Shown: positions 3,554 to 45,823, counted from the stretch's first letter. The stretch: 47,169 nucleotides of DNA from an uncultured Lachnospiraceae bacterium (GCA_946618155.1 CAMOKZ010000001.1:1-47169); one strand, 5' to 3'. Program-made: numbers and translations. The notes: generated by a model from the letters alone, not told the origin.

Positions 3554-4732
3554 TCACTCACGGCGAAAGCGGATCTCCCTCTTCCAGGTCTTCCCCGACG
3601 GCTTGTAGAAGCCGCCGAACCCCAGGTCCTCCACCTCGGTCACGCAGCAGTCTGCGGAGGTGAAATACACGGTCAGCCGAAGCCTCGTCGCCCGGTTGGG
3701 CCGGTCCGGAAAGCCGGTCAGCCGCAGCACGTGCGAGACCTCGTCGCCCCCGGTCATGGGCTTGGTGATGAAGCTGATCCTCGTCTCCCCGTCCGGGATG
3801 AACTCGCAGCTGTGATGGGCCTCATACCAGTTGACGCCCGCGGAGACGACCGGATAATAGGTCTCCCGCCCGCGGATGCGCATCATGATGCCCATATTCT
3901 CCCGGATGATGTCCGCCCCGAGGAACAGAAGTCCCGGGAGCGAAAGCTGCCCCGCCCTCTCCATCGCGGCGTAGCAGGCGCCCCTGGTGAACAGGTTCCT
4001 GCCCTGGAAGGCGTGGCGGTGAAAGCACAGGTACTGGAACGACCGGGGCGCCCAGCTGCGGTCGAAGTAATCCCCGATCAGATAGCTCGTGGTGACATTG
4101 CGCCGTTCGAAGACCTTTCCGAGCAGTTCATAGAACAGCCTGTCGCGCTCGCTGTCCCACTCCCTGTCGTTGCGGTTGCCGCGGACCGACTGGTCCATCA
4201 CCTGGGTCGCGGCGGTCTTCACGGTGACCAGCGCCGGCGTCGTCGAGCGGTCGATATGCAGGACGGAGCCCGTGATCAGGCTCTCCTCCTCGCTGTACTC
4301 GAGCAGCGCCACATCCCCGCTCCACAGCTCCCGTTTCTGGTTGACGGCGTAATAGAAAAAGCTGCTGCGGTAATCCTGCACGTAGATGTTCTTGCGCGGA
4401 ACGCCGAGCTTCTCCATGGCGCGGGGAAGGCGTTCCCCGGCCGGCCCGGTCAGCTCCGGCACCGTCATCATGACCCTCGCCTGCTCCGGTGCCTGGAAGG
4501 GCTCGGCGCAGCGCAGGCAGTCGCGGAGAAAGCTGACCAGGGGACCGTCCTCCGCCTCCTCCCGGGTGATGGCGTCCCAGACGCCCTCCGGGAGCGGGAT
4601 CAGGCAGCTCTCGTCTCCCTCCTCCATGCCGGTCGTGACGGGTTCCTTTTCCCCCGCCGCGTACCAGGTCACCTGGGCCCCGCTCCTGCACAGCTGCAGG
4701 CCGTACATGATCTCTTTCTTTTCCTGGGCCAT
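3554..4732 (-). CDS. conserved hypothetical protein (resembles DUF5716-type proteins of Clostridia; name from memory, unverified)
   Basis: The track ORF starts at a TTG (4750). I prefer the ATG at 4732 (MAQEKKEIMYG...), which is preceded by GGAGG and lies 15 nt after the upstream stop. The N-terminal half (MMTVPELTGPAGERLPRAMEKLGVPRKNIYVQDYRSSFFYYA) is reminiscent of Hsp70/actin-fold proteins, but no nucleotide-binding motif is evident. Confidence 0.6.
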   Translation of the reverse strand: MAQEKKEIMYGLQLCRSGAQVTWYAAGEKEPVTTGMEEGDESCLIPLPEGVWDAITREEAEDGPLVSFLRDCLRCAEPFQAPEQARVMMTVPELTGPAGERLPRAMEKLGVPRKNIYVQDYRSSFFYYAVNQKRELWSGDVALLEYSEEESLITGSVLHIDRSTTPALVTVKTAATQVMDQSVRGNRNDREWDSERDRLFYELLGKVFERRNVTTSYLIGDYFDRSWAPRSFQYLCFHRHAFQGRNLFTRGACYAAMERAGQLSLPGLLFLGADIIRENMGIMMRIRGRETYYPVVSAGVNWYEAHHSCEFIPDGETRISFITKPMTGGDEVSHVLRLTGFPDRPNRATRLRLTVYFTSADCCVTEVEDLGFGGFYKPSGKTWKREIRFRRE

Positions 4733-4746
4733 AATTCCTCCAAGTG

Positions 4747-7700
4747 TCAAAGGAGCGTGAACAGATGCTCCGTCACATAATCGAGCTGGCGGTAGTTTTC
4801 GATCTGCCGCGCGGTCTCCTCGTCATCCCCGCCGTCATGGGCGCGGATCATCCGGTTGAGCAGGGCGTAGCGGCCCTCCTCCCCGTCTCCGGCGCTGTAG
4901 GTGACGCGCCGGCGGTCCGATACCTGCACGACTCTCTCGCCGTCCTTCTCCTCCGCCCAGCACTCCAGCTCATCCCCCTCAAACAGGATGAACTCCCGCA
5001 CGAAGATTCCCTCAAAGCGGTCCTGCATCACTTCCTGGGTCCACTCTTTGGAAACGCCGGTGAACCGGTAGTGCAGCACCATGGTGTGCGCGGGGTCGGC
5101 GGCGTACTCGAGGAAGGTCTTGTCCTCCAGCTGATAGGGAAGCCGCAGCTCCCGCGGGAATTTGGTAAAGAAGGCAAACCGCATGCCCCGGCCGGCAAAC
5201 TCGGAGAGCAGCATGGCCGCCCGCCGCGTCTGATCCGCGTCCAGGGTATCCTGCTTCGAATAGTACCGGAGAAGGGCAAGGCGGCAGACGTCCTCCGTCT
5301 CCTTCTTCTGCTCCAGCATGCTCTCCACGCACTCGAACAGGGCCCCGCTCACCGGCATATCCCGGACAAAATACTCGTAGCACTTCAGGTTCAGGTAGGC
5401 CCGGCAGAGCTTTCTCCGTCCCATCTTTTCCCGGTAGGAAAGGAAGATCTGCTCGGTGCCCGCGGAGCCGCTGCCCGTAAAGAGCATCATGGTGAGGATC
5501 TTCTCCTCCAGGACCATGGTGTCGAGCTCGAACCTCCTGGCCGTGTGCCACAGCCGCTTCATCTCCTCCACCGGCCCGTCGAAGTACATCAGCAGGTAGG
5601 TGAGGATGTTGTTGTCATATTTCCCGAACCGGTAGCACTGCGCGCAGTAGCTGAGCAGCACCCGGTTCTCTTCATATTCCATGCCCAGGACAGTCTGGCT
5701 GCAGATGCGCACCAGCGTCATCAGGGGCACCTTCTCGCTGCCGTAGGTCTCGATCAGGCCGAAGGCCTCCTCGTACATGCCCTCCTGGGTCAGCAGGACC
5801 AGCAGCGTCTTCTTGTCCGCCCGGACAAAGGTCGGATAATCGATCCCCCGCAGGTAGGAAAACAGATCGTCCCGGCCGGGATCATCCGCGTAAAAGCCCA
5901 GCACGCGCCTGCGGAAGTCATTCCGGTATTCCGGGGTGAACAGATCCATCCCGCACGCCCGGATAAAGAAGGGCAGCGTCTCCTTGGTGAGGGGCGCGTC
6001 GTCCGCCAGCGACCCGCACATAAAGACGGCAAGACCGGGATGCTCCGGCACGATCTCCAGGCACCAGCGCAGCAGCTTCGGCGTATCCAGCAGCCGCTCC
6101 GCCATGTAGAGATCCGTGGAGGCGTACCAGTTTCCGTTCTCGTCCTGCATCAGGATGCGCGCGTCCTCGGTGTAGATCTGCACCTGGGCGTGCCCGTCGG
6201 TGAGGGTCGTCACCTGCTCCCCCTCCGTCATGCGGTGGACCACTGCGATGGAACGGATGCTGGGATTGCGGCAGGTCACCTCGAAGGTAAACAGGATCTT
6301 CACCAGATGGCTGGCCAGCGCGGGCGTCAGCATGCGGCGGTCGAGGAAGCGCTCGTAGAGCACAGCGAGATTCTCGTCGATCCGCCCCAGCTCCAGCTGC
6401 TCCAGCAGGAACTGCTCGATGGCCCCGCGGTAATTGCGGTAGACCTGGGGCACATATTCCCGGTTATCCGAGATATCCCGGTAGATCCTGGCCCGCTTGC
6501 GCCAGTCCAGGGTCGTATTGTAGATGAAGTACATGCGGATGACCTGCGGCATCCGCTCGATCCCGCAGTCCTCCATCGCCTCCATATAATATTCGTAAAG
6601 TCCCGTGATCTTCAGATCCCGGTTCACGGCCAGGCTGTACCAGCGGAAGCACGAGGGATCTTTCCGGTCCCCGGCGATCAGCTGGGTGCAGATGGCGGTA
6701 AGGCAGCTGTCCGTCGGCGAATCGTTCCAGCAGAGGGTGAGGAGCCGGCAGACCAGGCTGTTGTATTTGCGCAGATGCAGAGCCAGCGAGCAGACCTGCT
6801 CGGTCAGCTCCGGCGTCATCAGCCGCCTGCGCGCGGCGAAGATCAGGATCTTCTGTTCAAAGCTGCCCAGCCGGTGCAGCAGATAGGGCGCGTCCCTGAA
6901 GACCAGGAAGGCCTCCAGATAGAGAATGGGACTCGCGCAGCCGAGGGCGGTCTGGCGCGACACGGCTTCGATGCGGGAGACCATGTCCCGCTCGAGGGAT
7001 TCGTCCAGCATCAGCAGGACCCATTCCAGGACCCAGCAGTCCGGATTTGCGGCGAGGGTCTGGCGGACCTTCTCCGTCACGCTCCGCACATAGTCGGGAT
7101 CATTCTGCGACAGCGCGCTCACGAACAGATAGATGCCGTAGCGCGCCGGGGTGTCGATCCGCTGGGGACGCCGCTCGATGTCCTGCAGCATCCTGCGGCC
7201 CGCAGTCCGCTTATCCTCCAGGAAAAGAAGGCCTGTCATGAACAGCTCCGCGATCACGTCGCGGCCGCCCGCGTGCCGGTAGCTTTCGATCAGGCTGCGG
7301 GTGCGGTCGATCCACACCTGCTGCTCGATTCTGCCGAGACGATAATCCAGATAGACCTCGGTGCACTTGCGCCGCACCATGACCTGTACCCGGGCCGCCT
7401 TCGCGCTCTCGCCGGCGGCTCTCTGCGTGACCAGAACCTCGATCTCGAATTTCTGGTAGCAGGTCGTGATGAAGATCCTGCCGTAATTCTTCCCCGCGTG
7501 GAGGAAGTTCGTGTCGATGATATAGTCCAGATCGAACTCGCTGCCGACGAACTCGTCAGTGGTGACGATCTTCTTCTCCGGCCGCAGGAAACGGGTATCC
7601 GTCTGGATATCCATGCGCAGGAACCCCCAGCCGCTCTTGCGGATGCGGATGGACTCGCGCACGGAGCGGCGCAGGTTGTCAAAGGACACCACCGTCACCG

Positions 7701-8289
7701 GCACCGTCAGCGCCACCGGATCCTTGCAGTGCGTGCCGATCAGGAATTCCTCCAGGCTCTGGTAGCTGAAGGAGTTCACCTTCAGCGCGCGGTAAAGCAC
7801 CTCGGCCTCCGTTCCCCAGGAAGCCGCGGTGCGCTCAAATTTTTCACTGACAAAAAGCGGGTAGGCGCTGAGGAAATCGGTCTGCGCCAGCTGGGCGAAG
7901 GCCTCCTTCGTCATCGGCTCGCCGCTGCCCTGGTCGTCCTCGTCCGCCTCCAGAATCTGGGCGCGCACGGGAAGGGCGAACTCGCCCACGTCCGTGCAGA
8001 CGGTCAGGGTACCCTCGCAGACATCCCCCTCCTCCAGGCCGTTGGTGTCGATCTGGTAGTGGATCTCCGCGTTGTTGCTGTTAAACTCGGGCGGGTCAAA
8101 GGTGATTCTCGGGTCGGAGGCGTAGAGGAAACCGTGCACGCGGCGGCCGTCGGCCCGCACAGCGCGCAGAGTGCCCCGGAGCACCTCGCCCCTGGCGGCT
8201 GCCCTGTCGATCCGGTCCGGCGTCAGTACGACCCCGGGCCTGCTGTATGTAAATTTTCCGTTCAGCAGCTGCTCCAACCGTTTCTTCAA
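4747..8289 (-). CDS. large conserved hypothetical protein, 1180 aa (resembles DUF5717-type proteins; unverified)
   Basis: Uninterrupted 3.5-kb ORF with a TTG start at 8289, preceded by GGAGGGG 6 nt upstream. There is no in-frame ATG for more than 120 codons. No signal peptide, transmembrane segment or catalytic motif is recognisable. The 1220-aa + ORF 4744..8406 is its antisense shadow. Confidence 0.65.
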   Translation of the reverse strand: MKKRLEQLLNGKFTYSRPGVVLTPDRIDRAAARGEVLRGTLRAVRADGRRVHGFLYASDPRITFDPPEFNSNNAEIHYQIDTNGLEEGDVCEGTLTVCTDVGEFALPVRAQILEADEDDQGSGEPMTKEAFAQLAQTDFLSAYPLFVSEKFERTAASWGTEAEVLYRALKVNSFSYQSLEEFLIGTHCKDPVALTVPVTVVSFDNLRRSVRESIRIRKSGWGFLRMDIQTDTRFLRPEKKIVTTDEFVGSEFDLDYIIDTNFLHAGKNYGRIFITTCYQKFEIEVLVTQRAAGESAKAARVQVMVRRKCTEVYLDYRLGRIEQQVWIDRTRSLIESYRHAGGRDVIAELFMTGLLFLEDKRTAGRRMLQDIERRPQRIDTPARYGIYLFVSALSQNDPDYVRSVTEKVRQTLAANPDCWVLEWVLLMLDESLERDMVSRIEAVSRQTALGCASPILYLEAFLVFRDAPYLLHRLGSFEQKILIFAARRRLMTPELTEQVCSLALHLRKYNSLVCRLLTLCWNDSPTDSCLTAICTQLIAGDRKDPSCFRWYSLAVNRDLKITGLYEYYMEAMEDCGIERMPQVIRMYFIYNTTLDWRKRARIYRDISDNREYVPQVYRNYRGAIEQFLLEQLELGRIDENLAVLYERFLDRRMLTPALASHLVKILFTFEVTCRNPSIRSIAVVHRMTEGEQVTTLTDGHAQVQIYTEDARILMQDENGNWYASTDLYMAERLLDTPKLLRWCLEIVPEHPGLAVFMCGSLADDAPLTKETLPFFIRACGMDLFTPEYRNDFRRRVLGFYADDPGRDDLFSYLRGIDYPTFVRADKKTLLVLLTQEGMYEEAFGLIETYGSEKVPLMTLVRICSQTVLGMEYEENRVLLSYCAQCYRFGKYDNNILTYLLMYFDGPVEEMKRLWHTARRFELDTMVLEEKILTMMLFTGSGSAGTEQIFLSYREKMGRRKLCRAYLNLKCYEYFVRDMPVSGALFECVESMLEQKKETEDVCRLALLRYYSKQDTLDADQTRRAAMLLSEFAGRGMRFAFFTKFPRELRLPYQLEDKTFLEYAADPAHTMVLHYRFTGVSKEWTQEVMQDRFEGIFVREFILFEGDELECWAEEKDGERVVQVSDRRRVTYSAGDGEEGRYALLNRMIRAHDGGDDEETARQIENYRQLDYVTEHLFTLL

Positions 8290-8397: not shown

Positions 8398-8847
8398 TTA
8401 CTTTAATATCTTTTTCAGTTCATCCATGAAGGTGTTGACATCCTTGAACTCCCGGTACACGGAAGCAAACCGGACATAAGCGACGGCATCCAGATCCTTG
8501 AGGCCCTGCATGACCTTCTCGCCGATCTCCTTGCTCTCGATCTCCCGTTCTTCCCGGTTAAAGATCTCCGCCTCCAGCGCGTCGACCAGCTGGTTGATCC
8601 GCTTGATCGGCACCGGACGTTTATAGCAGGCCCGCATGATGCCGGCTTCCAGCTTTCTGCGGTCGTACTGCTCACGGGTGCGGTCCTTTTTGATCACGAT
8701 CATGGGAATGGTCTCCACCTTTTCATAGGTGGTGAAGCGTTTTCCGCAGTTATCGCACACACGTCTCCTGCGGATGCTTGTCCCTTCATCTGAAGGTCTC
8801 GAATCGACGACTCTTGTCTCGTCGAGGCCGCAATACGGACATTTCAT
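8398..8847 (-). CDS. nrdR: transcriptional repressor NrdR (zinc ribbon plus ATP-cone)
   Basis: 149 aa. [42 protein letters not shown] is the canonical NrdR zinc ribbon, followed by an ATP-cone. Confidence 0.93.
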
Positions 8848-8957
8848 TCCTGTTTTCCTCCCCTGTCCGGTCTCCCTTTAACCCCTCACAGTCCGCGCAT
8901 TTATCAGGGAAAGCGCAGTCTGTGCCTTTATCAGTATAACGAACAAGGCCGCCTGTG

Positions 8958-11690
8958 TCAATCCAAATCGCCTGTCCGGCCAAGCCGCAGCGCCTGCAGG
9001 ATGCGGGCCAGCTCGCCGTCAGCCTGGTCAAACAGATAGACCTTTCCGCCCGGATTCTCCTTCAGGTATTCCCGGCGGATCTCCTCACAGGTGTCCTCGA
9101 TCTCCTTGAGCAGCTGCCCGGCCGAAAGGCGCCTGGCCCCGCTGCCCCAGATGATCATCTGCTCCGTGCGGTCCGAGGTGGCCACGGTCACGTCCGCTTT
9201 CCGGCCGATCCGGTGGACCGTCTTTTCAATATAGGAATCCGCGGTCTCGGCCTCCGCCGTATAGACCACGTAGATCCCGCTCTTCTGTGCGATATGCTCC
9301 TGCCCGCCCTCCACGCGGTAGGCGTCAAAGACCAGGATGAGGGTCATGCGCCGGTAGCCGCGGTAGTTGGAGAGGATCTCGGAAAGCCTCTCCCTGGCCG
9401 CCGAAAGATCGATCGCGGCAAGCTCCCGCAGCTCGTCCCAGGAGAAGATGATGTTGTAGCCGTCCACCAGGAGGAACTCCTCCACCGGCGGCTCTTCCCG
9501 CCGGGAGCCGGATGAAGCTGCCGTCTCCCCGAAGGTCCTCGTGCGGGGCGAACGCTCCCAGCCTTCCCTCCGCCTCTCCTGCCTGCCGTAGGTGCGGACA
9601 AAGATCTCCTCGAGCTCCTTTTCCCCGGCAAGACTCGCGGCGTATCCGCCGCCGGCACCTCCCGTCTGTTCCCGGGGCTGCGCAGTGCCGGGATCGGACG
9701 CGGCAAGGCGTCCGTCTTCTTCCGTGTGCATGTGGGCTTCGACCTCGTCCCAGGGGACATAGTAGCCCGCGCCGTGGGCGCAGAAGACCGATCCGCAGGG
9801 ATTTCTCACGTCGGCGTCCGGGTCATAGCCTGAGGCCTCGATCACGCTCTGCGCGTCCTGGCAGGGCGCGTAGCCGCCGGGCAGGCACAGCAGGTGCCCC
9901 TCGCCCTTGGTGTAGGCCGTGACCTCCTTCTGGTAATTGCGCATCTTCGCGACCGGCGCCGTGCCCGTCAGCACGGCAAGGCTGCCCTCCGTCTCCGGTC
10001 CCTGCACGGTGCCTCCCATGTTCCGGACGTCCGTCATGGCGCGGCCCACCGAAGCGGCCGGCACCTCCAGACGGTACTCATAGACCGGTTCGAGCAGGAT
10101 GCTCTCGGCGCGGCGAAGGCCCTGCCGCACGGCCCGGCGGGCCGCCTGGGCGAAATCGCCGCCCTCCGTGTGCTTGAGATGCGCTCTCCCGCCGGTCAGC
10201 GTGATCTTCATATCCGTCACCGGCGAGCCGGTCAGTACGCCCCGGTGCTGCCTGCTCTGCAGGGCGGACAGGATGAGCCGCTGCCAGTTTCTCGCGAGGA
10301 CGTCCGTGCTGACCGCGGAGGCAAAGGTAAGGCCGCTCCCCCTCGGCGCAGGCTCCAGGCGAAGGCGGACCTCCGCGTAGTGCCGCAGCGGTTCAAAATG
10401 CCCGGCTCCCTCCGCCGGCTCTGCGATCGTCTCCCGGTAGACCACCTTCGGATCTCCGAAAACAGCCTCCACGCCGAAGCGGTCATGGATGAGCCGCTGC
10501 AGGATCTGGATCTGCACCTCGCCCATCACCTGGGCCTGCAGGTCCTTCGTCTCCGTATCCCAGTCCAGGTTAAGCTCCGGGATCTCCTCCTCCAGGGCCC
10601 GCAGGGAAGGCAGGAGCCGGTGCACGTCCTCCCCGCCCGCAAAGCTCATCCGATAGGAAAGGACAGGTTCCAGGACAGGCCGGGTATCGCCGGACAGGGC
10701 GCCAAGCCCCTGCCCGCAGAAGGTCCGGGTAAGCCCGGTCACCGCGCACACGCAGCCCGCCTCGGCCGTCTGCACCGGGACAAAGTTTTTCCCGTCGTAT
10801 ATCCGGATCTGGTCGACCTTCTCGGTCCAGGTCTCCTGCTCGCTCTCCTCCTCGTCCCCGCCGGTGCGGGAGGCCGCGGTGCCGGTCACGGTCTGGCGGG
10901 CCGCCAGCTCTCCGCCCGTGATCTTGAGCCAGGTGAGCCTCGTCCCCTGGGCGTCCCGAGAGATCTTGTAGACCCGGGCGCCGAAGTCTTCCGGGTAGTC
11001 CGGCGTCCGCAGCAGGCGGGCAAGCCCGGAGAGGAATTCCTCCACCCCCGTCATCTTCAGCGCGGAGCCGTAGAAGCAGGGAAACAGCCGGCGCCGCCGG
11101 ACAAGGCCCGCGATCTGTTCGTCCTCAATGGTCCCGCTCTCCAGGTAGGACTCCAGGAGGGCCTCATCGCAGACCGCCGTCTCCTCGCAGAAGGCCCCGG
11201 TGCGCGCGTCATATTCCGTAAAATCCACCAGGGATCCGCTCAGCGACCCGGCAAGGGCAGCGCTTACAGCATCCTTGTCGGCGAGGGGCTGGTCCATCTT
11301 GTTCACGAACACGAAGGTGGGGATGTGATAGCGCTCCAGCAGCCGCCACAGGGTGCGCACGTGGCCCCCCGCCCCGTCCGCCGCGCTGATCACCAGCACC
11401 GCGTAGTCGAGGATCTGCAGGGCGCGCTCCATCTCGGCGGAGAAATCCTCATGCCCCGGCGTGTCCAGCAGCGTCACGTCGAAGGGGCCGATCTTCAGCT
11501 GCGCCTGCTTGGAGAAGATCGTGATTCCCCTCTCCCTCTCCATCTGGAAATGATCCAGAAAGGCGTCGCCGTGGTCGACGCGTCCCGCCCTGCGGATGCT
11601 GCCGGTCAGGTAGAGCATGGCCTCCGCCAGCGTCGTTTTGCCCGCATCCACATGGGCAAGGATACCGATATTGAGTCTGTTCGTGCGCAT
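8958..11690 (-). CDS. translational GTPase (TetM/TetO/EF-G-like) fused to a C-terminal Rae1/YacP-type NYN ribonuclease domain
   Basis: I prefer the ATG at 11690 (MRTNRLNIGILAHVDAGKTT), which has GAAGGTGG upstream; the track start 11795 adds 35 implausible residues. GTPase motifs are present: G1 AHVDAGKTT, G2 RERGITI, G3 DTPGH and G4 NKMD. EF-G-like domains run to about nt 9735. A charged linker spans 9477..9734. The NYN module from about 9476 (FLLVDGYNIIFSWDELRELA...VFDAY...TAEAETADSYIE...VATSDRTEQ) is collinear with B. subtilis YacP/Rae1. Confidence 0.8.
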   Translation of the reverse strand: MRTNRLNIGILAHVDAGKTTLAEAMLYLTGSIRRAGRVDHGDAFLDHFQMERERGITIFSKQAQLKIGPFDVTLLDTPGHEDFSAEMERALQILDYAVLVISAADGAGGHVRTLWRLLERYHIPTFVFVNKMDQPLADKDAVSAALAGSLSGSLVDFTEYDARTGAFCEETAVCDEALLESYLESGTIEDEQIAGLVRRRRLFPCFYGSALKMTGVEEFLSGLARLLRTPDYPEDFGARVYKISRDAQGTRLTWLKITGGELAARQTVTGTAASRTGGDEEESEQETWTEKVDQIRIYDGKNFVPVQTAEAGCVCAVTGLTRTFCGQGLGALSGDTRPVLEPVLSYRMSFAGGEDVHRLLPSLRALEEEIPELNLDWDTETKDLQAQVMGEVQIQILQRLIHDRFGVEAVFGDPKVVYRETIAEPAEGAGHFEPLRHYAEVRLRLEPAPRGSGLTFASAVSTDVLARNWQRLILSALQSRQHRGVLTGSPVTDMKITLTGGRAHLKHTEGGDFAQAARRAVRQGLRRAESILLEPVYEYRLEVPAASVGRAMTDVRNMGGTVQGPETEGSLAVLTGTAPVAKMRNYQKEVTAYTKGEGHLLCLPGGYAPCQDAQSVIEASGYDPDADVRNPCGSVFCAHGAGYYVPWDEVEAHMHTEEDGRLAASDPGTAQPREQTGGAGGGYAASLAGEKELEEIFVRTYGRQERRREGWERSPRTRTFGETAASSGSRREEPPVEEFLLVDGYNIIFSWDELRELAAIDLSAARERLSEILSNYRGYRRMTLILVFDAYRVEGGQEHIAQKSGIYVVYTAEAETADSYIEKTVHRIGRKADVTVATSDRTEQMIIWGSGARRLSAGQLLKEIEDTCEEIRREYLKENPGGKVYLFDQADGELARILQALRLGRTGDLD

Positions 11691-11801
11691 CTGACCACCT
11701 TCCCCGGGCGCCCCGGCGCCGCGGATAATTCTCCGGGAATGCCAGCATGCCCCTGCCGCAGGGGCAGGGGCATGGACATGGTTAACATACTGCAATCTGT
11801 T

Positions 11802-12440
11802 TTAAAGCTTGGAATACCCGTAGGCGTTGACGATGGCGTCGATCCTGATGTCTCTCTTGCAGAGCGGGCACTCGGTAAAGTCGTAGGTGCGGTAGCCGGC
11901 CAGATCCTCCTCACTGAAGAGGGAATGGATGGGATATCCGCCGATCTCCTTCTGTGCGGAGAAGATCGCAGCGATGCCTTCCATCATGCCGCCATAGTAA
12001 TTGACGCATTCGATCGCTCTCTCCACGGTATGGCCCGTGGTAGCCGTGGCCACCAGGAGCAGGCAGTGGCGGTCGCGCACCATGTTCTGCAGGTTGTCGC
12101 GGAAAAGCAGCTGGCCGCCCTGGTTTACCTCAGGCGACACGATATACATGCTCTTGTGCTGGTTCAGGGACAGGACGCCCGCTTTTGTGAGGTCCTCGGC
12201 CAGATAGGCCGCGATCACCTCGCACCCATCCATCGTAATGATCGTGTCGATGTAATGGGTCGCCGCAAATCTGGAGGCGAGCACCTCCGCGGCGGCGTGG
12301 GCTTCGCTCTGCCTGGATTTCATGATGGTCATGTCCACATAATAATTGATGTGGGAATGATTGGTGGCAAAATGTCCCGGTATCACGCGGATACTGGCGT
12401 CGGGGTTTTCCCTTGACGGGATCTTGACGATCTGTTTCAC
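11802..12440 (-). CDS. phosphoribosyltransferase-fold protein with atypical PRPP loop
   Basis: 212 aa. CLLLVATATTGHTVERAI occupies the position of the type-I PRTase PRPP motif (hydrophobic run, DD, xxTTGxT), but the acidic pair is replaced by AT. A C-terminal CPLC is present. Confidence 0.55.
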   Translation of the reverse strand: MKQIVKIPSRENPDASIRVIPGHFATNHSHINYYVDMTIMKSRQSEAHAAAEVLASRFAATHYIDTIITMDGCEVIAAYLAEDLTKAGVLSLNQHKSMYIVSPEVNQGGQLLFRDNLQNMVRDRHCLLLVATATTGHTVERAIECVNYYGGMMEGIAAIFSAQKEIGGYPIHSLFSEEDLAGYRTYDFTECPLCKRDIRIDAIVNAYGYSKL

Positions 12441-34529: not shown

Positions 34530-35726
34530 TCATTCTGCTTCCGCATAGTATTCGTGCACCAGGCTCCTGTACCCCAGTGCCCTGATGTCCGCGTATCTGG
34601 CGTCAAACCGCCCCTTTGTCCGCTTCCCGGTCAGCAGATAACGGATGCAGTCCTGGGCGTAATGGTCGATCCGCCGCAGGCTTTCGTCTGTCGTGATCAT
34701 CGGGAAATACCAGCGCGACCAGGTAAGGTCCCTCTCCCCCGCGTTTTCCAGGAGCTTGCGGTTAAACACGCGGATAAAGGCCGTCGCGGCGTGCCTGCCC
34801 TCAAGGCCGTTCCTCTTCCTCCACCGCTCCAGCGCCCTTGTTTTCCTGCGCATCTTGCCCATGATCTTCCGGACGGAAGCGGGGGCGATGTCCACCTCGC
34901 CCTCCCTGTACCGATAGCCGAGGAAAACAAAGCCTTCCTGCGGCGGGGCCAGCACTTCCTTATCCGGGTTGACCTTCAGGCCCTTTCCGGCAAGGTGCGC
35001 CCTGACCTCCCGGGCCAGCTCCTCCGTCTCCCCGCGGGAGGGGGCAAAGAGGATGATGTCGTCGGAATAGCGGGCGTAGGGGATGTCCGTCCCGGCAAAT
35101 TTAAGATCCAGGTCCCGCAGGTAAAGGTTCGCGTAAAAGCAGGCCTGGGGCGTCCCCGCCATGATTCCCTTCTGCTCGGTGATCCGCTCTCCCCCGTCCA
35201 GCACCCGGGGCTCCCGCAGAAGTCCGCCCAGAAAGCCGAGCAGGGCGGGATCATCCGAAAGCGTCCGGGCAAGAAGAGGATAAAACGCATCGATATCGAT
35301 GGAATTGAAATAGTTGCTCACATCCGTTTTGTAGGACCAGAGCGCGCCGATCCCCGGCCTGCCGGACAGGGCGCGGAAGGCCTGCTGGGCACTGTGCCCC
35401 GGCCTGAAGGAGTGCAGGTTTTCCGGAAAAAGATGGTCGTACCGGCGAAGGAGAAGGTAGGTCAGGAGCTTCAGCACCATGGTGTGCGCCCGGGGATAGA
35501 CGTACACCGTCCGCTTCTTCTGGGTGCTCCGCTTGCTGATCGCGGCCTTCCGGGGAAGCGGAAACGGCTCCCCGGCCATGATTCCCGCGCAGACCGGAAG
35601 ATATTCTTCTTTGTCGATAAACGCGCGGAGCTCCTCCAGACGGCCGGACGGGCCGCCCAGGGAAGCCTTGTAGGCGTAATACCTCTCCCACTCTTCCCGG
35701 ACCGAAAGCAGATCAAGCAGAGACAT
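34530..35726 (-). CDS. free-standing reverse transcriptase (group-II-intron-like RT fold with thumb/X-like C-terminus, no intron RNA)
   Basis: 398 aa, with all seven RT blocks: KKRTVYVYP (1), HSFRPGHSAQQAF (2a), YKTDVSNYFNSID (3), GIMAGTPQACFYANLYL (4), YARYSDDIILF (5; YSDD codons at 35061..35072), LKVNPDKE (6) and FVFLGYRY (7). The roughly 100-aa C-terminus is helical and basic (RKIMGKMRRKTRALERW...WSRWYFPM...IDHYAQDCIRYL), like a thumb/maturase-X domain. AGGAG RBS lies 9 nt upstream. Confidence 0.85.
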   Translation of the reverse strand: MSLLDLLSVREEWERYYAYKASLGGPSGRLEELRAFIDKEEYLPVCAGIMAGEPFPLPRKAAISKRSTQKKRTVYVYPRAHTMVLKLLTYLLLRRYDHLFPENLHSFRPGHSAQQAFRALSGRPGIGALWSYKTDVSNYFNSIDIDAFYPLLARTLSDDPALLGFLGGLLREPRVLDGGERITEQKGIMAGTPQACFYANLYLRDLDLKFAGTDIPYARYSDDIILFAPSRGETEELAREVRAHLAGKGLKVNPDKEVLAPPQEGFVFLGYRYREGEVDIAPASVRKIMGKMRRKTRALERWRKRNGLEGRHAATAFIRVFNRKLLENAGERDLTWSRWYFPMITTDESLRRIDHYAQDCIRYLLTGKRTKGRFDARYADIRALGYRSLVHEYYAEAE

Positions 35727-35784: not shown

Positions 35785-35829
35785 AAAGCGAAAAGAGAAA
35801 TCTTTAAATCCGGAGAAATTCTCCGGATT
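35785..35829 (-). terminator. terminator-like hairpin between the 145-aa ORF / structured segment and the RT gene
   Basis: Minus strand: AATCCGGAG, loop AATTT, CTCCGGATT (35829..35807). It is followed by the T-rich TAAAGATTTCTCTTTTCGCTTTTTC. It could be a true terminator, an attenuator or the 3' end of an ncRNA. Confidence 0.5.
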
Positions 35830-35996
35830 ACACGGGATCGTACACGGTCCGGCTGCCTGCGAAGCCTTCCGTCATGCAAAGGGGATACTCCCCTCTGCAC
35901 GCGGACCGTGCCGGACCCGCCGCAGGCGCAGCGCGTTCTCTTCCCGGTTTTTCCTGTTTCGGGAACGCAGGGCGTTCCGGGTAAGACAGGTCTTTC
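35830..35996 (-). ncRNA. candidate structured non-coding RNA or 3'UTR immediately upstream of the RT gene
   Basis: There is no credible ORF here. Hairpin 35962..35978 has a 7-bp stem. Hairpin 35876..35898 has a 10-bp stem whose single non-Watson-Crick pair is G-U on the minus strand but A-C on the plus strand. A 9-bp long-range helix joins 35843..35851 and 35902..35910. A crossing 7-bp complementarity joins 35855..35861 and 35921..35927. Confidence 0.35.
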
Positions 35997-36505: not shown

Positions 36506-36534
36506 AGTATACCACAAACCTCCCCTGCTGTCAT
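36506..36534 (-). promoter_or_regulatory. sigma-A promoter driving the 145-aa ORF and the downstream structured segment
   Basis: Minus strand: ATGACA (36534..36529, overlapping the upstream stop codon), a 17-nt spacer, then TGgTATACT (extended -10; TATACT at 36511..36506). Confidence 0.6.
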
Positions 36535-37886
36535 CCCGCGCCGACCTTTGCCCGGACAAACCGGTAATTGTCCCCGCCGGCGTTTTTCTCATACCACATG
36601 ATGTAGGGATACCCGGCATCGTATTCCTTCGAAGCCTCATTGTACTGCTGCACCGTACCGTAGAGGATGAGGGTATTCTCCTCCACATCATAGGAATAGG
36701 GCATCTCATAGTAGTGCCCGGCAAAGCTGCCGGCATTGTCCAGGGTGGAGAGATAATAATTCTCCCCTGTCCGCTGCGGGACAAGCTGCGTGTCCGCGGC
36801 CAGCGCGTTCAGCGCCGCCTCGTCTGCGCTTCCCGCGATCTCCGCCAGGATATCCTGCAGGTCGCTTCGCGTGACCAGGTTATAGTCCGTCCCGCCGGAG
36901 GAGGTGCTGACGATCCTGCTATCCTGGTCATGCCAGAGATAGGCATACAGGAAAAGCAGGTAGGCGCGGTCCTTCGCGGAGAGATCCTCCGCGGAAAAGT
37001 CCATCTCCTGCGCCGGCGCGTAATTCGTCCTGTACTTGCAGAGCATGGCGCCCATGGAGGCCAGTCGCGCGATATCCTCCTGCGACGGGGTAAAATAAGC
37101 CGTGTGGGTAATGTCAGGATCGATCCCGTGGCCAAAGCCGGTCTCCCCGCTTGCCGCATAGCCGTCCGCAGCGGCGCTGCTGCCCGTCTCCGTCTCCTCC
37201 CCCGGCTCTCTGCCGTCATCCAGGAGGCCGCCTGCGCTGAAGGTCACGCCGCCGGAATACCCGGTCTCGTCCGGCGCCAGCCCGTCATCGGCAATGCCGC
37301 CGATCCCGGCGCTCGTCCCGTCGTCAAACAGATAGAGCTCGCTGATGCAGGTATCGTCATATTTCGATCCCTTGCGTACGCCGTCTATCCGCACGCTAAC
37401 CACGCCGTCGCTGATGAGGGGTGCGGGAAACCAGACGGAATACCCGTTCTGCGCATCCGTAAAGCTGTTAGCCGTCAGGGAAAGATCCACCGTGAACGAC
37501 TGCCCGCCCGTGGAGAAGACAAGAGAGCTTGGCGCGTTGTTCTCGTAAAACAGCTTCTCGGATTTCAGGAAGCCGTTCCAGATCCTGGCGCCGGTGACGA
37601 CCGTCCCGGCCGGAATAAACAGCTGGACGGACTCGCCCGTCCCGACGCCCGGGGCGCCCTCGGTCCAGCAGGAGGACATGCTGTAATCCTGCAGGTTGGA
37701 CGGGCTGTGGTCATAGCCTTCTTCCCACAGCTGTGAGCTCGCCGTAAACTCCGTGGCGAAAAGATAATTTTCATAGGCCTGCGCCTGCATCGCCGAAGGC
37801 CCCGCCGCAAAAGCCGCCGCGGCAAAGGCCGCGGCAGCGGCAAGTGCCGCTTTTCTCTTCCCTGCACTATTCCTGTTCCTGCTCAT
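36531..37886 (-). CDS. secreted protein with an N-terminal discoidin/NADase-type glycan-binding-like domain
   Basis: 451 aa with a signal peptide (KRKAALAAAAAFAAAAFAAGPSAMQA). The domain pattern SSCWTEGAPGVGTGESVQL...IWNGFLKSEKLFYENNAPS...GSKYDDTCISELYLF matches the F5/8-type-C-like modules common in Firmicutes exoproteins. Confidence 0.6.
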   Translation of the reverse strand: MSRNRNSAGKRKAALAAAAAFAAAAFAAGPSAMQAQAYENYLFATEFTASSQLWEEGYDHSPSNLQDYSMSSCWTEGAPGVGTGESVQLFIPAGTVVTGARIWNGFLKSEKLFYENNAPSSLVFSTGGQSFTVDLSLTANSFTDAQNGYSVWFPAPLISDGVVSVRIDGVRKGSKYDDTCISELYLFDDGTSAGIGGIADDGLAPDETGYSGGVTFSAGGLLDDGREPGEETETGSSAAADGYAASGETGFGHGIDPDITHTAYFTPSQEDIARLASMGAMLCKYRTNYAPAQEMDFSAEDLSAKDRAYLLFLYAYLWHDQDSRIVSTSSGGTDYNLVTRSDLQDILAEIAGSADEAALNALAADTQLVPQRTGENYYLSTLDNAGSFAGHYYEMPYSYDVEENTLILYGTVQQYNEASKEYDAGYPYIMWYEKNAGGDNYRFVRAKVGAG

Positions 37887-42956: not shown

Positions 42957-45758
42957 TCATTCTTCCGCGTCAAGTTCTTTCAGCCGCTTTGCCGCCGCCC
43001 TGCGGATCCAGGGCTCCCTGTCCTCGGCCGCGATCCGTCCGAGCAGCTCCCTGTCCTCCAGGCGGGCGCATGCCGCCTCCCGGATCAGGGTATAGGGATC
43101 CTCCAGCGCCATCCGGGCAAGGAGAGCTTGGGTCTGCACTCTCCTGATCAGAGCCAGGCGTTTTGCACCCTCCGGCATACCCGCCAGAAGCTCCCGGAAA
43201 ACATCCGCGTCGCCAAGCTGTTCCAGTGCGGCCAGCCGCACGCCCTCACGCGGATCGCGTTTCGAGATATCCAGCAGCAGCTCCCTGTCAGCGCCGCTCT
43301 CCAGACGCCTGACCGCTTCGATCCGCACATCAGCGTCTTCATCCCCGCGCGCGGTCTGCCGGAGGATGTCCCGGCTTTCCAGCCGGCGCACAGCCGCCAT
43401 CCGCACATACGGATCCATATGCTGCTGCGCGATCCGGCCGAGGTCTTCCTGAGAGGTAAGCTGCCCGACAACGGCGATCTGCACGTCCAGATACCGGGTA
43501 TTGTTCAGGATGTGGCGAAGCAGCGCCTGGCTGCGGATCCTGCCGACCGCCGCTTTTTTCTCCTCTCCGGTCCACCGGCCCTTCTTGTCGAGGGCGATGG
43601 CGGCAAGACGCAGCGGGTTGATGATCTTTCCAATGTCAGACCCCGGTTTATCTCCCTGCTGTTCCTGCTGCTTCTGCTCTCTTTGCCGGTCCTGCCGGCT
43701 CTGCTCTTCCTGCTTCCATCCTGTAACCAGAAATTCTTCCGGGATAACGGGCACTTTCAGCGAGCTGCAGCCCGCAAAGGCGCCGTCCGGACAGACGGTC
43801 ACGCTCTGCGGGATCTGCACGTACTCAAGGTTCCGGGAATCAAAGAACGCCGATTCCTCGATCTCCTTTACCCCTTCCTGCAGGACGACCTTCCTGAGTC
43901 CCCGGCAGTGCGACAGGGTCATGCGGCCGATCTTCTCCACAGTGCCCGGTACGGTGAGTTCATACAGACCGGTACAGCCCTGCAGCATGCACACGCCCAG
44001 CTCGCGCAGCCCCTCATGGAGGGTGAGGGAGCGCAGGCCGGTGCAGCCGTCAAAGGCGTTATTGCCGATGGTGCGGACGCCTGCCGGCACATCGATGGCG
44101 GCCAGGCTCCTGCACGCGTCAAACACGGAGTAATGCAGCGCCTCCACGTGTTCAGGCAGACGGACGGCGGTGAGGGATGAGCACTCTTTAAACGCCCGCG
44201 GACCGATCTTCGTGATGCTGTCCGGCAGATAGACCGTGTCCAGACCGGAGCAGCCAAGGAAAGCCTCGTCTCCGATCTCCTCCACGCCCTCCGGGATCTC
44301 AATCGTCAGCAGATCCCTGCGGCCTTTGAATGCTCCGGGAAAAATGACCGTCACCGGGAGCCCGCCGTACTCCGGCTCGATCACGGCATGCGGTCCCCCG
44401 TGATACCGGGTGAGGTATATTCCCCCGTTTTCCACGATGTATTCAAAACCCGGAATCTGAGACAGTTCCCTGCAGCTGTTCGCGGAAAGCCAGTTGGCCA
44501 GCCGGACGGCCCTCTCCTCTTCGGTTCCCGCGTCATATTTCAGGCTGTGCTGCTCGCTGAGCTCTGCAAGATCCTCCGGCAGCACGCTGTCATCCAGATA
44601 GTAGAGCGAGATCCTCTTCTCCAGGGCAAAGGCAAGGCGAAGCTCCTCCACGCCTTTCCCTGCAAGGTATCCGCGGTCCACAAAGGCGATAAAACAGGCG
44701 CAGCCCCGGATGAGGCGCTGCGCATCGCCGGACGCGTCCCCGGCGCTGTCCATCACGACGCTGCCCTTTTCTCTCAGGTCATCGGCAAGCGCCCTTCCCC
44801 TCTCCCCGGTATAGCTTGCGCAGGCGTAGGTCTTTGCAGCGGTCTCAGACATCTCCCGGACCGCCATGGAATCATCGCGGATGATGGTGACGAAGCTGCA
44901 TCTGCTTCCCACGGAATAAGCGGCAGAGCCCGGCGCACAGTGAAGGGTCAGGCGCTTCTGCACCGGATTGATGGAGAGCTTTGCGCACCAGTTCTCATCA
45001 AACTGCGTGACAGAGGACGGAACATAGACATCTGTGACGGCTCCGGGGTCATAGACACAGCCGAAGGTCGCCATGCCGATCCTTTGCAGCGTCGGCGGGA
45101 AATGCACCTCGGTGACCTGCGTCTGGTCGAAGAAGGTCATGGACGTCTCCAGGACCTTAAGGCCGCTTCCGGCCGGATATTCCTCCGGGACATGGACGAC
45201 GCTGTCCCCGCCGCGATAGCGGAGGAGACGGACTCCGCCCACACACCGGCCGAACTCATATTCCGCGTCCTTTGCCGCCACGGCGGGTGAGAGCAGAATA
45301 CGGCGGGGTCTTGCTTCTCTCTCTTCGCCTTTTGCGGCGCATCCGGCACTTTCCAGCAGCTGTTCGATCCCATCCTCCCCTGCCCGGGGACAGGCAGAGA
45401 GATCAAAGTCCGCGAACTGCGCCCCGTCGTCCAGCTGGCAGACCAGAATGGTCTTCCCGAATTCCAGCGCCTGCGGCAGCTCATACCGGTTGATATAGCA
45501 GCTGTCAACGGACTGGCTCGTCACAAAAAGCAGAAAAAGCGCACAGTTCTCCTCGTGGGCGCGCAGGACCTCATCGTACGCATCGCCGATCTCCAGCCCC
45601 TCATCGTACCAGAACCGCCAGCCCTTCTCATACAGCCTTCTGAGTATGGGAAAGATTCTCTTCCTGTCCCGGTGCGAATAGCTGACAAAGATATACGGCT
45701 GTTCCTCATCCGCCGGAAACGGTGCGGTAATGCTTTCGTATGCCTGATGTTCCTTCAT
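42957..45758 (-). CDS. cytoplasmic multidomain TIR - LRR(BspA-type) - TIR-like - LRR(BspA-type) - HEAT-repeat protein
   Basis: I prefer the ATG at 45758 (MKEHQAYES..., 933 aa), with AGGGGGG upstream. TIR1 is aa 21-115 (nt 45414..45698): YIFVSYSHRDRKRIFPILRRLYEKGWRFWYDE...SCYINRYELPQAL, with the conserved Glu. TIR-like 2 is aa 309-392 (nt 44583..44834). The LRR_5-type repeats are at aa 165-290 and aa 440-670 (IGDEAFLGCSGLDTVYLPDSITKIGPRAFKECSSL...). A Gln/Glu/Arg linker follows. The HEAT/PBS-lyase-like repeats are aa 740-930 (DPYVRMAAVRRL, DADVRIEAVRRL, REGVRLAALEQL, EPWIRRAAAKRL). There is no signal peptide. Confidence 0.8.
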   Translation of the reverse strand: MKEHQAYESITAPFPADEEQPYIFVSYSHRDRKRIFPILRRLYEKGWRFWYDEGLEIGDAYDEVLRAHEENCALFLLFVTSQSVDSCYINRYELPQALEFGKTILVCQLDDGAQFADFDLSACPRAGEDGIEQLLESAGCAAKGEEREARPRRILLSPAVAAKDAEYEFGRCVGGVRLLRYRGGDSVVHVPEEYPAGSGLKVLETSMTFFDQTQVTEVHFPPTLQRIGMATFGCVYDPGAVTDVYVPSSVTQFDENWCAKLSINPVQKRLTLHCAPGSAAYSVGSRCSFVTIIRDDSMAVREMSETAAKTYACASYTGERGRALADDLREKGSVVMDSAGDASGDAQRLIRGCACFIAFVDRGYLAGKGVEELRLAFALEKRISLYYLDDSVLPEDLAELSEQHSLKYDAGTEEERAVRLANWLSANSCRELSQIPGFEYIVENGGIYLTRYHGGPHAVIEPEYGGLPVTVIFPGAFKGRRDLLTIEIPEGVEEIGDEAFLGCSGLDTVYLPDSITKIGPRAFKECSSLTAVRLPEHVEALHYSVFDACRSLAAIDVPAGVRTIGNNAFDGCTGLRSLTLHEGLRELGVCMLQGCTGLYELTVPGTVEKIGRMTLSHCRGLRKVVLQEGVKEIEESAFFDSRNLEYVQIPQSVTVCPDGAFAGCSSLKVPVIPEEFLVTGWKQEEQSRQDRQREQKQQEQQGDKPGSDIGKIINPLRLAAIALDKKGRWTGEEKKAAVGRIRSQALLRHILNNTRYLDVQIAVVGQLTSQEDLGRIAQQHMDPYVRMAAVRRLESRDILRQTARGDEDADVRIEAVRRLESGADRELLLDISKRDPREGVRLAALEQLGDADVFRELLAGMPEGAKRLALIRRVQTQALLARMALEDPYTLIREAACARLEDRELLGRIAAEDREPWIRRAAAKRLKELDAEE

Positions 45759-45787
45759 CGCGCAGCCCCCCTCTGCAGGAAAACACA

Positions 45788-45823
45788 TGAAGGCGCCTCC
45801 GGATCCCCATCCGATGACGCCTT
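45788..45823 (-). terminator. weak terminator-like hairpin between the histidine kinase and the TIR gene
   Basis: Minus strand: GAAGGCG (45823..45817) pairs with CGCCTTC (45794..45788) around a 22-nt loop, followed by ATGTGTTTTCC. The U-tract is poor. Confidence 0.25.

Follow-up and report, generated by a model that had tools for sequence, protein, structure and literature searches.

A translational GTPase fused to a Rae1-type ribonuclease domain in Clostridia, a candidate nuclease for stalled or collided ribosomes

Introduction

Rae1 (YacP) of Bacillus subtilis, the only characterised member of its nuclease family, cleaves mRNA in a translation- and frame-dependent manner. The enzyme was first modelled into the ribosomal A site; it is now reported to cleave mRNA when ribosomes stall or collide, at a site upstream of the stall, at the 5′ edge of the stalled ribosome, and to produce substrates of tmRNA upon collisions (PMC13622287). 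Because its binding is transient, there is no structure of ribosome-bound Rae1. It has been likened to SmrB and Cue2; the SMR domain of MutS2 lacks the nuclease residues. Here we analyse a stretch of 47,169 nucleotides (nt) from an uncultured Lachnospiraceae bacterium (GCA_946618155.1, CAMOKZ010000001.1:1-47169; hereafter the window), in which one gene at positions 8958-11690 joins a translational GTPase (trGTPase) related to tetracycline ribosomal-protection proteins to a complete Rae1-type domain, and we argue that the GTPase may deliver the nuclease to stalled or collided ribosomes.

Fusions of this kind have been recorded twice. Atkinson 2015 (BMC Genomics, PMC4342817) listed a Tet-subfamily trGTPase with a YacP-like NYN domain in ten Clostridiales species, and Matelska et al. 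2017 (NAR, PMC5499597) reported TetM-NYN_YacP fusions from some Clostridia without assigning them a role. The window protein has exactly the published architecture, comes from the same class and is no different in kind. A preliminary description of this DNA, made from the sequence, had stated that the architecture lacks functional characterisation. This still stands for the literature we searched, in which no functional study of the fusion was found and the two most recent Rae1 papers are silent on the fused form, but the architecture itself had already been published. New beyond the 2015 and 2017 surveys are the scale (hundreds of species rather than ten), the placement of the GTPase as a sister clade, the replacement of Tet determinants, a conserved C-terminal extension, a minimum tether length and the link to the 2025-2026 collision model of Rae1.

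Results

One reading frame joins a GTPase to a nuclease

The open reading frame (ORF) at 8958-11690 lies on the minus strand, a point that the preliminary description did not give, and runs uninterrupted for 910 codons plus a stop in the ORF listing and translation. At its maximum the frame extends to a TTG at 11795. A Shine-Dalgarno sequence, GGAAGGTGG, stands ahead of the ATG at 11690, and a start there gives an N terminus that agrees with those of homologs. Pfam models place GTP_EFTU at residues 5-227 (E 3.7e-48), EFG_III at 341-412 (E 2.7e-08; 34.2 bits against a cut-off of 27), EFG_IV at 414-528 (E 4.1e-22), EFG_C at 532-612 (E 5.4e-16) and NYN_YacP at 740-901 (E 1.6e-46; 158.7 bits against a cut-off of 24.6), the last over profile positions 1-164 of 166. 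The proposal of the preliminary description, that a TetM/EF-G-like GTPase is fused to a Rae1/YacP NYN domain, is thus borne out by the domain set of a single ORF: four EF-G-type domains and a full-length NYN_YacP fall within the boundaries that it had outlined, and every motif that it quoted is present in the translation. In the Pfam scan of the window protein itself, the domain II model (PF22042, EF-G_D2) did not rise above threshold, and it was matched in close homologs only. The features of the gene are as follows, with the evidence for each.

8958-11690, minus strand: whole gene, a 910-residue trGTPase-Rae1 fusion with its stop codon (8958-8960); ORF listing, translation, Pfam, an identical protein cluster (P0001) and more than 120 full-length homologs.
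11694-11704, minus strand: Shine-Dalgarno-like GGGGAAGGTGG, 4-14 nt 5′ of the ATG at 11690; read from the sequence.
11010-11678, minus strand: G domain, residues 5-227, with G1 AHVDAGKTT, G2 RGITI, G3 DTPGH (catalytic His80), G4 NKMD and G5 GSALK; Pfam GTP_EFTU and motif alignment.
10701-10982, minus strand: domain II β-barrel, about residues 237-330, bounds approximate; PF22042 EF-G_D2 in close homologs, and β-strands at 237-330 in a low-confidence model.
10455-10670, minus strand: EF-G domain III, residues 341-412; Pfam EFG_III.
10107-10451, minus strand: EF-G domain IV, residues 414-528, the A-site-reaching domain, with tip loop I GHFEPLRHYAE; Pfam EFG_IV and loop alignment against Tet proteins and EF-G.
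10152-10187, minus strand: domain IV loop III, residues 502-513, RAHLKHTEGGDF, in place of Tet(M) YYSPVSTPADF and EF-G SYHDVDSSELAF; alignment.
9855-10097, minus strand: EF-G domain V, residues 532-612; Pfam EFG_C.
9723-9854, minus strand: conserved C-terminal extension of the GTPase, residues 613-656, its motif starting at G606; conservation, and the C terminus of unfused relatives.
9627-9722, minus strand: variable, gapped linker segment 1, residues 657-688; low conservation, gaps and low predicted local distance difference test (pLDDT) values.
9585-9626, minus strand: conserved short helix motif in the tether, residues 689-702, EKELEEIFVRTYG (LE.IF.RTYG); conservation.
9474-9584, minus strand: variable Arg/Glu-rich linker segment 2, residues 703-739; alignments.
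8988-9473, minus strand: complete Rae1/YacP-type NYN domain, residues 740-901; Pfam NYN_YacP and alignment to Rae1 (5MQ8/5MQ9).
9462-9464, 9324-9326, 9237-9239 and 9171-9173, minus strand: codons of the catalytic aspartates D743, D789, D818 and D840, respectively.

Two separate genes joined by a frameshift or an assembly error, a possibility raised in the preliminary description, are ruled out by several lines of evidence. First, independent contigs cross the junction without a gap, one from a 2014 gut metagenome (covering 8700-10181) and one from a 2025 sheep gut metagenome (9206-10206). Second, the fusion is a single ORF at all of the 85 family loci taken from independent assemblies, isolate genomes and one complete chromosome among them. 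Third, a protein search returned more than 120 clusters at 90% identity, all 897-935 residues long with the same domain set and 55-60% identical to the query; among 50%-identity representatives there are at least 150 family clusters (625-1035 bits), nearly all of 830-1000 residues. Fourth, a scan of species-representative genomes with two family-specific motifs, DFSAEMER and EPLRHYAE, confirmed at least 598 relatives, and the best 80 of these loci, which span Lachnospiraceae, Oscillospiraceae, Ruminococcus, Desulfosporosinus, Fusibacter and Anaerovorax, all have the NYN domain in the same ORF. These counts also answer how widespread the fusion is, a point that the preliminary description had left to a survey. 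Set against them, and against two published reports, is one small contig from run X1, which joins 9475 to 9764 in an in-frame skip of 288 nt that would remove nearly the whole tether and is anchored on one side by only 22 nt; the chance that frameshift, misassembly or gene calling created the fusion is negligible.

Gut metatranscriptome data contain short contigs, at least 99% identical, that map to both halves of the gene; they are assembled contigs, and DNA carry-over is possible. Strain-level variants also occur in public runs: X9 and X23 have in common three insertions of one base each, at 10839, 10841 and 10844, which add 3 nt in total and keep the frame. On the evidence of these sequence comparisons, the fusion is old and stable, with both halves under selection.

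The nuclease half retains the Rae1 catalytic residues

Over 156 aligned positions the NYN part is 40% identical to the sequence of the B. subtilis YacP/Rae1 crystal structures (5MQ8/5MQ9; E 2e-26), and the C-terminal helices of Rae1 are present as well. The published catalytic mutant of Rae1 is D7N D81N; by counting through the alignment, D7 corresponds to D743 (LLVDGYN) and D81 to D818 (ETAD). Both, together with D789 (VFD) and D840 (TSD), are conserved at 98% each across 225 diverse family members, the set from which all residue conservation figures here are taken. All four acidic residues are therefore intact, disposing of the possibility, entertained in the preliminary description, that the catalytic site is degenerate. 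The NYN half reads as a complete, catalytically competent-looking endoribonuclease of the Rae1 type.

The fused domain differs from its B. subtilis counterpart in how it is deployed. Rae1 is a stand-alone protein of about 170 residues, encoded in the gltX-cysS-mrnC-yacO-yacP operon, and associates with ribosomes only transiently, whereas the fusion NYN domain is covalently tethered to a 656-residue GTPase in an unrelated and variable genomic context.

The GTPase half has intact G motifs and its own domain IV tip

The G1-G5 motifs are intact, including the P-loop GKT and the catalytic His of the switch II DxxGH, and conserved at 97% or above; the same holds individually for K18, H80, N130, K131 and D133. 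Domains II-V follow the G domain, which together with the five motifs places the protein in the EF-G-like five-domain branch of the trGTPase superfamily. The G′ insertion is shorter than that of EF-G.

Domain IV, the part that would reach the A site, has conserved tip loops of its own. In loop I, H431, E433, P434, H437 and Y438 are conserved at 99% or above, with H431, P434 and H437 at 100%; in loop III, H507 and D512 are at 100%, K506 at 95% and T508 at 96%. Tip loops that are invariant across the family and yet unlike those of Tet proteins and EF-G argue for a specific conserved contact rather than a mere anchor. As judged from its motifs and domain order, the N-terminal 656 residues form an active-looking translational GTPase of a distinct lineage.

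A sister lineage of the tetracycline ribosomal-protection proteins

Homologs of the gene, including that of Agathobacter rectalis, carry the PGAP name 'TetM/TetW/TetO/TetS family tetracycline resistance ribosomal protection protein', and Atkinson 2015 (PMC4342817) suggested that the fusion is what this name says: a genuine ribosomal-protection protein, with a GTPase that dislodges tetracycline as Tet(M) and Tet(O) do and a nuclease that adds a novel resistance mechanism. Part of the evidence is compatible with this. The protein shares with Tet(M) the five-domain EF-G-like build and the shortened G′ region, it aligns collinearly to residues 4-606 of Tet(M) in one unbroken stretch, and its domain IV loop I has a similar length and a common H.E..P..aromatic-A pattern. 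The best-scoring NCBIfam model is NF012153 (tet_protect), at 406.8 bits.

That score, however, lies far below the curated cut-off of 775, and the other curated Tet cut-offs are missed by wider margins: NF000120 (320 against 900), NF033148 (251 against 1100), NF012154 (233 against 1425) and NF012155, the Tet(M) model (207 against 1420). EF-G cut-offs are missed too (NF009381, 336 against 583; TIGR00484, 273 against 659). The GTPase is 27-31% identical to Tet(M), Tet(O), Tet(W) and TetB(P), and about equally distant from EF-G (about 28%). With EF-G it has in common the fold, all G motifs, a phmmer score of 251 bits and a loop III His that aligns with the tip His of EF-G (SYH in EF-G, RAH here); it differs in lacking most of the G′ insertion, which splits the EF-G alignment into two stretches, and in lying outside the str operon, with no rpsG or tuf nearby.

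A neighbour-joining tree of 39 sequences, with references taken from annotated records (591 columns, 200 bootstraps), places the family relative to Tet proteins, EF-G, BipA, LepA and RF3, a comparison that the preliminary description had proposed for all of these but RF3. All 200 bootstraps recover the fusion family as monophyletic; a clade of Tet(M), Tet(O), Tet(W) and TetB(P) that excludes it appears in 194 of 200; and the family is sister to that clade, relative to EF-G, BipA, LepA and RF3, in 169 of 200. Because this is a distance tree with limited Tet sampling (four classes, without Tet(Q) or Otr(A)), the placement of the GTPase lineage as a sister of the Tet(M/O/W/B(P)) clade, outside it, is likely rather than settled.

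The elements that matter most for Tet(M) function have also been replaced. In Tet(M), the C-terminal helix and domain IV loop III (residues 505-510, LYYSPV) are reported to be functionally the most important parts (PMC4750697). In the fusion family, alignment shows RAH(L/V)KHTEGGDF where Tet(M) has loop III YYSPVSTPADF, and GHFEPLRHYAE where it has loop I PPNPFWAS; the helical tail of Tet proteins, PNSRIDKVRYMF, is absent, and a conserved block at residues 606-656 stands in its place. The replacements are themselves nearly invariant within the family, and the protein carries an extra conserved C-terminal block, a tether and a nuclease that Tet proteins lack.

The setting of the gene points the same way. 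It is chromosomal and non-mobile, its context is variable, and its occurrence across hundreds of species of gut Clostridia looks like vertical inheritance. Around four diverse homologs and the A. rectalis gene we found no transposon, tet regulator or leader peptide, the last of which tet(M) possesses. In the PLSDB tables AMRFinderPlus flags tet(M), tet(O), tet(W) and tetB(P), and flags neither the fused A. rectalis gene nor an unfused relative in Ligilactobacillus salivarius. The view of the preliminary description that this is not classical tetracycline resistance accords with the sub-cut-off scores, the position outside the Tet clade, the replaced loop III and helix and the non-mobile context. 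The GTPase is very probably Tet-like by descent yet not a Tet protein, and it is very unlikely that the gene confers tetracycline resistance.

A conserved extension and a long tether separate the two halves

The stretch between domain V and the NYN domain, which the preliminary description took as a linker of about 85 residues, spans 127 residues and is not all loose, for it holds conserved, lineage-specific elements. The first is the extension that ends the GTPase, with the family-wide motif GY.PC..(V)I...YDP..D..NP.GSVFC.HGAG..V.W..V..MH from about 605/606 to 656. This block forms the very C terminus of unfused relatives (a 644-residue L. salivarius protein and three representatives of 680-708 residues) and so belongs to the GTPase lineage. 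A profile of residues 598-660 gave only chance matches against PDB sequences (E 0.42 or above), and residues 598-739 matched nothing in Pfam at E up to 10. A Zn-binding Cys/His site in the block was considered and dropped: C602 is not conserved beyond close relatives, and C610, C637 and H639, at 81-91%, are not invariant.

The second element is the short motif at residues 689-702, in which I696 is conserved at 93%, L693 at 66% (97% as L/I/V) and R699, T700 and G702 at 66-76%; it is modelled as a helix, at low confidence, in both AlphaFold models described below. On either side the sequence is variable. Glu, Lys and Arg are enriched in the tether, whose length among 220 fused members, counted from H655 to L740, ranges from 62 to 193 residues with a median of 87. 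A tether that is never short and contains a conserved helix motif fits a need to reach a distant site.

Structure prediction gave a mean pLDDT of 59 for the full-length protein (20-sequence alignment), with residues 624-864 below 50, and 41 for the C-terminal third (36 sequences). Because both models are of low confidence, we claim no three-dimensional arrangement. A Foldseek search with the full-length, low-confidence model returned generic matches, all of the top ones to EF-G (E 1e-48, root-mean-square deviation 20-25 Å).

Two relatives depart from the common layout. The unfused 644-residue protein of L. salivarius is encoded on megaplasmid pR1 (locus L085, 3385-5902) with no NYN remnant downstream; the gene adjoins a paralog of rpsN (ribosomal protein S14) and a 'putative metal homeostasis protein', the kind of setting in which zinc-responsive ribosomal paralogs are usually found. 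Protein P0258 (873 residues) has the GTPase and the conserved C-terminal block followed by Aminotran_4 in place of the NYN domain, and must be an alternative C-terminal fusion or else the product of an error in gene calling or assembly.

Genomic context is variable and has no conserved partner gene

In the window the gene lies downstream of an Rnf operon and a 212-residue ORF, and is followed by NrdR, DUF5717 and DUF5716 (Pfam). The genes that flank the four diverse homologs and the A. rectalis gene are unrelated, variable housekeeping genes, and no gene neighbourhood is conserved among the loci compared, with only one related locus keeping NrdR and DUF5717. A second YacP or trGTPase was found neither in the window nor in the flanks of 96 loci. 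One further feature overlaps the stop codon.

8933-8961, minus strand: promoter-like TTGACA-17-TATACT, 11 of 12 consensus positions; consensus scan only.

The site probably drives the downstream nrdR, to judge from its position and consensus match; lying over the stop codon, it suggests that the fusion gene is not necessarily co-transcribed with nrdR. NrdR is followed by DUF5717 (1180 residues) and DUF5716 at 3557-8289 (minus strand). The locus that keeps part of this order belongs to a related Lachnospiraceae metagenome-assembled genome (locus L002, 13282-16781), where NrdR and DUF5717 lie about 3.5 kb from the fused gene and NrdR is split by a frameshift.

Upstream, the 111-nt gap between the 212-residue ORF and the fusion gene contains a perfect 12-bp GC-rich hairpin, CATGCCCCTGCC-CCTGC-GGCAGGGGCATG (11746-11774, minus strand). 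It has no U-tract, the region is not significantly more structured than shuffled sequences (z = -1.75), and no Rfam regulatory RNA or leader was matched near the gene. The 212-residue ORF itself (11805-12440, minus strand) is matched by neither Pfam nor PADLOC models; visual inspection shows a motif like that of phosphoribosyltransferases, LLLVATATTGHT, and CPLC at the C terminus.

The context also bears on whether the protein might be an effector that shuts off translation under stress or phage attack by global destruction of mRNA or rRNA at ribosomes. PIN/NYN nucleases are common in toxins and defence effectors (PMC5499597 and general knowledge), and a Rae1 preprint speculates on an anti-phage role of collision nucleases. 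In A. rectalis a BrnT/CopG toxin-antitoxin pair lies directly upstream of the fused gene on the opposite strand (locus L092, 3325-3833), and the window contains a retron-like reverse transcriptase and a protein with TIR and leucine-rich repeats. The BrnT/CopG pair is probably coincidental, since it was not seen at the other loci, and the reverse transcriptase and TIR genes are more than 20 kb away. No family of the PADLOC-DB 2.0 defence models matches the fusion protein at E up to 0.01, neighbours differ at every locus compared so that no immunity or antitoxin partner is conserved, and the broad, vertical-looking spread is unlike that of patchy defence islands. A shut-off effector is accordingly a most improbable account of the fusion.

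The distant genes are recorded for completeness. An RT-5 RNA (RF03026, 78.8 bits against 45.7) at 35795-35931 lies immediately upstream of a 398-residue reverse-transcriptase ORF (RVT_1, E 5.8e-17; 34533-35726), which is followed by a DUF1232 protein; the arrangement looks like a retron-like or reverse-transcriptase-associated non-coding RNA cassette. A protein with a NADase_transloc domain is encoded at 36534-37886. At 42960-45788 lies the gene for a 943-residue protein with an N-terminal TIR domain, BspA-type leucine-rich repeats and HEAT repeats, possibly a NAD-consuming sensor or defence protein. All of these are on the minus strand.

Discussion

A tethered nuclease for stalled or collided ribosomes

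We propose that the GTPase is a GTP-gated ribosome-docking module that delivers the tethered Rae1 nuclease to stalled or collided ribosomes, a reading drawn from sequence comparison to which we assign a probability of roughly 55%. By homology to EF-G and Tet(M), the GTPase would bind the GTPase-associated centre of the ribosome, placing domain IV within or close to the A site; in its GTP-bound form it would recognise a stalled or collided ribosome, and docking would raise the local concentration of the nuclease. The preliminary description had suggested GTPase-guided delivery of an mRNA nuclease by a factor that docks at the GTPase centre and A site. Guided delivery is still plausible, but the A-site geometry is a difficulty: domain IV of an EF-G- or Tet-like factor fills the A site, and the tethered NYN domain would therefore have to cut elsewhere. 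The cut would most plausibly fall where mRNA enters the ribosome to which the factor is bound. Should that ribosome be the trailing one of a collided pair, its entry channel would look onto the 5′ edge of the stalled leader, the place where Rae1 is reported to cleave. From polymer scaling we estimate that a coil of about 87 residues typically extends some 70 Å, which would be enough for the entry side. GTP hydrolysis would then release the factor, limiting the encounter in time, and the truncated mRNA would pass to tmRNA-mediated rescue. We infer that the fusion is a version of the Rae1 collision or no-go pathway with built-in recruitment, and not a resistance protein.

Several points weigh against this proposal. 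Factors like Tet(M) engage ribosomes that are non-rotated and have an empty A site, whereas the trailing ribosome of a collision is expected to be in the rotated pre-translocation state. Unfused GTPase relatives exist, and the GTPase must therefore have some function of its own. Neither low-confidence AlphaFold model gives the placement of the NYN domain relative to the GTPase. Finally, the substrate of the nuclease could be rRNA or tRNA instead of mRNA.

The last point leads to a different function, that of a ribosome biogenesis or turnover factor, in which the GTPase would act on late precursor, idle or damaged ribosomes and the NYN domain would trim or cleave rRNA or tRNA. A parallel would be a PIN-domain nuclease at work in a quality-control step that resembles translation and is checked by a GTPase. 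Several relatives of EF-G, among them BipA and LepA, carry annotations for subunit assembly in Escherichia coli K-12, the YacP-type NYN domain was first predicted to act in rRNA or tRNA maturation from its operon with Mini-III and an rRNA methyltransferase (PMC4342817, PMC5499597), and the unfused L. salivarius relative is the one beside an rpsN paralog. Yet the fused domain is a close full-length homolog of B. subtilis Rae1, which cleaves mRNA, and no rRNA-processing or assembly genes are conserved beside the fusion. We regard a biogenesis or turnover role as unlikely, though less so than tetracycline resistance.

Comparison with other coupled systems

The proposed coupling of a sensor or motor that reads the state of the ribosome to a module that cleaves mRNA or rescues the ribosome has counterparts in concept in MutS2/RqcU (an ATPase with an SMR domain), in SmrB and in yeast Cue2. 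The likeness ends there, as these proteins are unrelated to the fusion in sequence and fold: their domain is SMR, not NYN, and the motor is an ABC/MutS ATPase, not a trGTPase. Comparable in concept is Dom34-Hbs1, in which a translational GTPase is partnered with an A-site factor.

Delivery to stalled or collided ribosomes would allow a broader, more tentative reading, which we offer as possible though doubtful: the fusion may act as a 'Rosetta stone' for the recruitment of Rae1-type nucleases to ribosomes in trouble, revealing that in much of Clostridia a dedicated, previously unrecognised trGTPase lineage, of Tet-like descent with a domain IV tip and a C-terminal extension peculiar to it, senses stalled or collided ribosomes and that its GTP-gated docking licenses a single mRNA cut by the attached nuclease. 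On that view GTPase-coupled no-go decay would have a bacterial counterpart in a single polypeptide. The idea may extend to Bacilli, where free Rae1 might likewise need a factor that occupies the GTPase centre.

Implications

For annotation, hundreds of gut and rumen Clostridia carry this gene under a tetracycline-resistance name that is very probably wrong by the evidence presented here, and the misnaming matters for resistome surveys that count such annotations. For the study of Rae1, now central to a Gram-positive collision-rescue pathway, the fusion is a promising handle on how the nuclease engages the ribosome: as it is covalently linked to a factor that binds the GTPase centre, a non-hydrolysable GTP analogue could probably trap it on the ribosome, opening the complex to cryo-EM and biochemistry. 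For evolution, the family represents a well-populated sister lineage of the ribosomal-protection proteins that may lie closer to their non-resistance ancestor.

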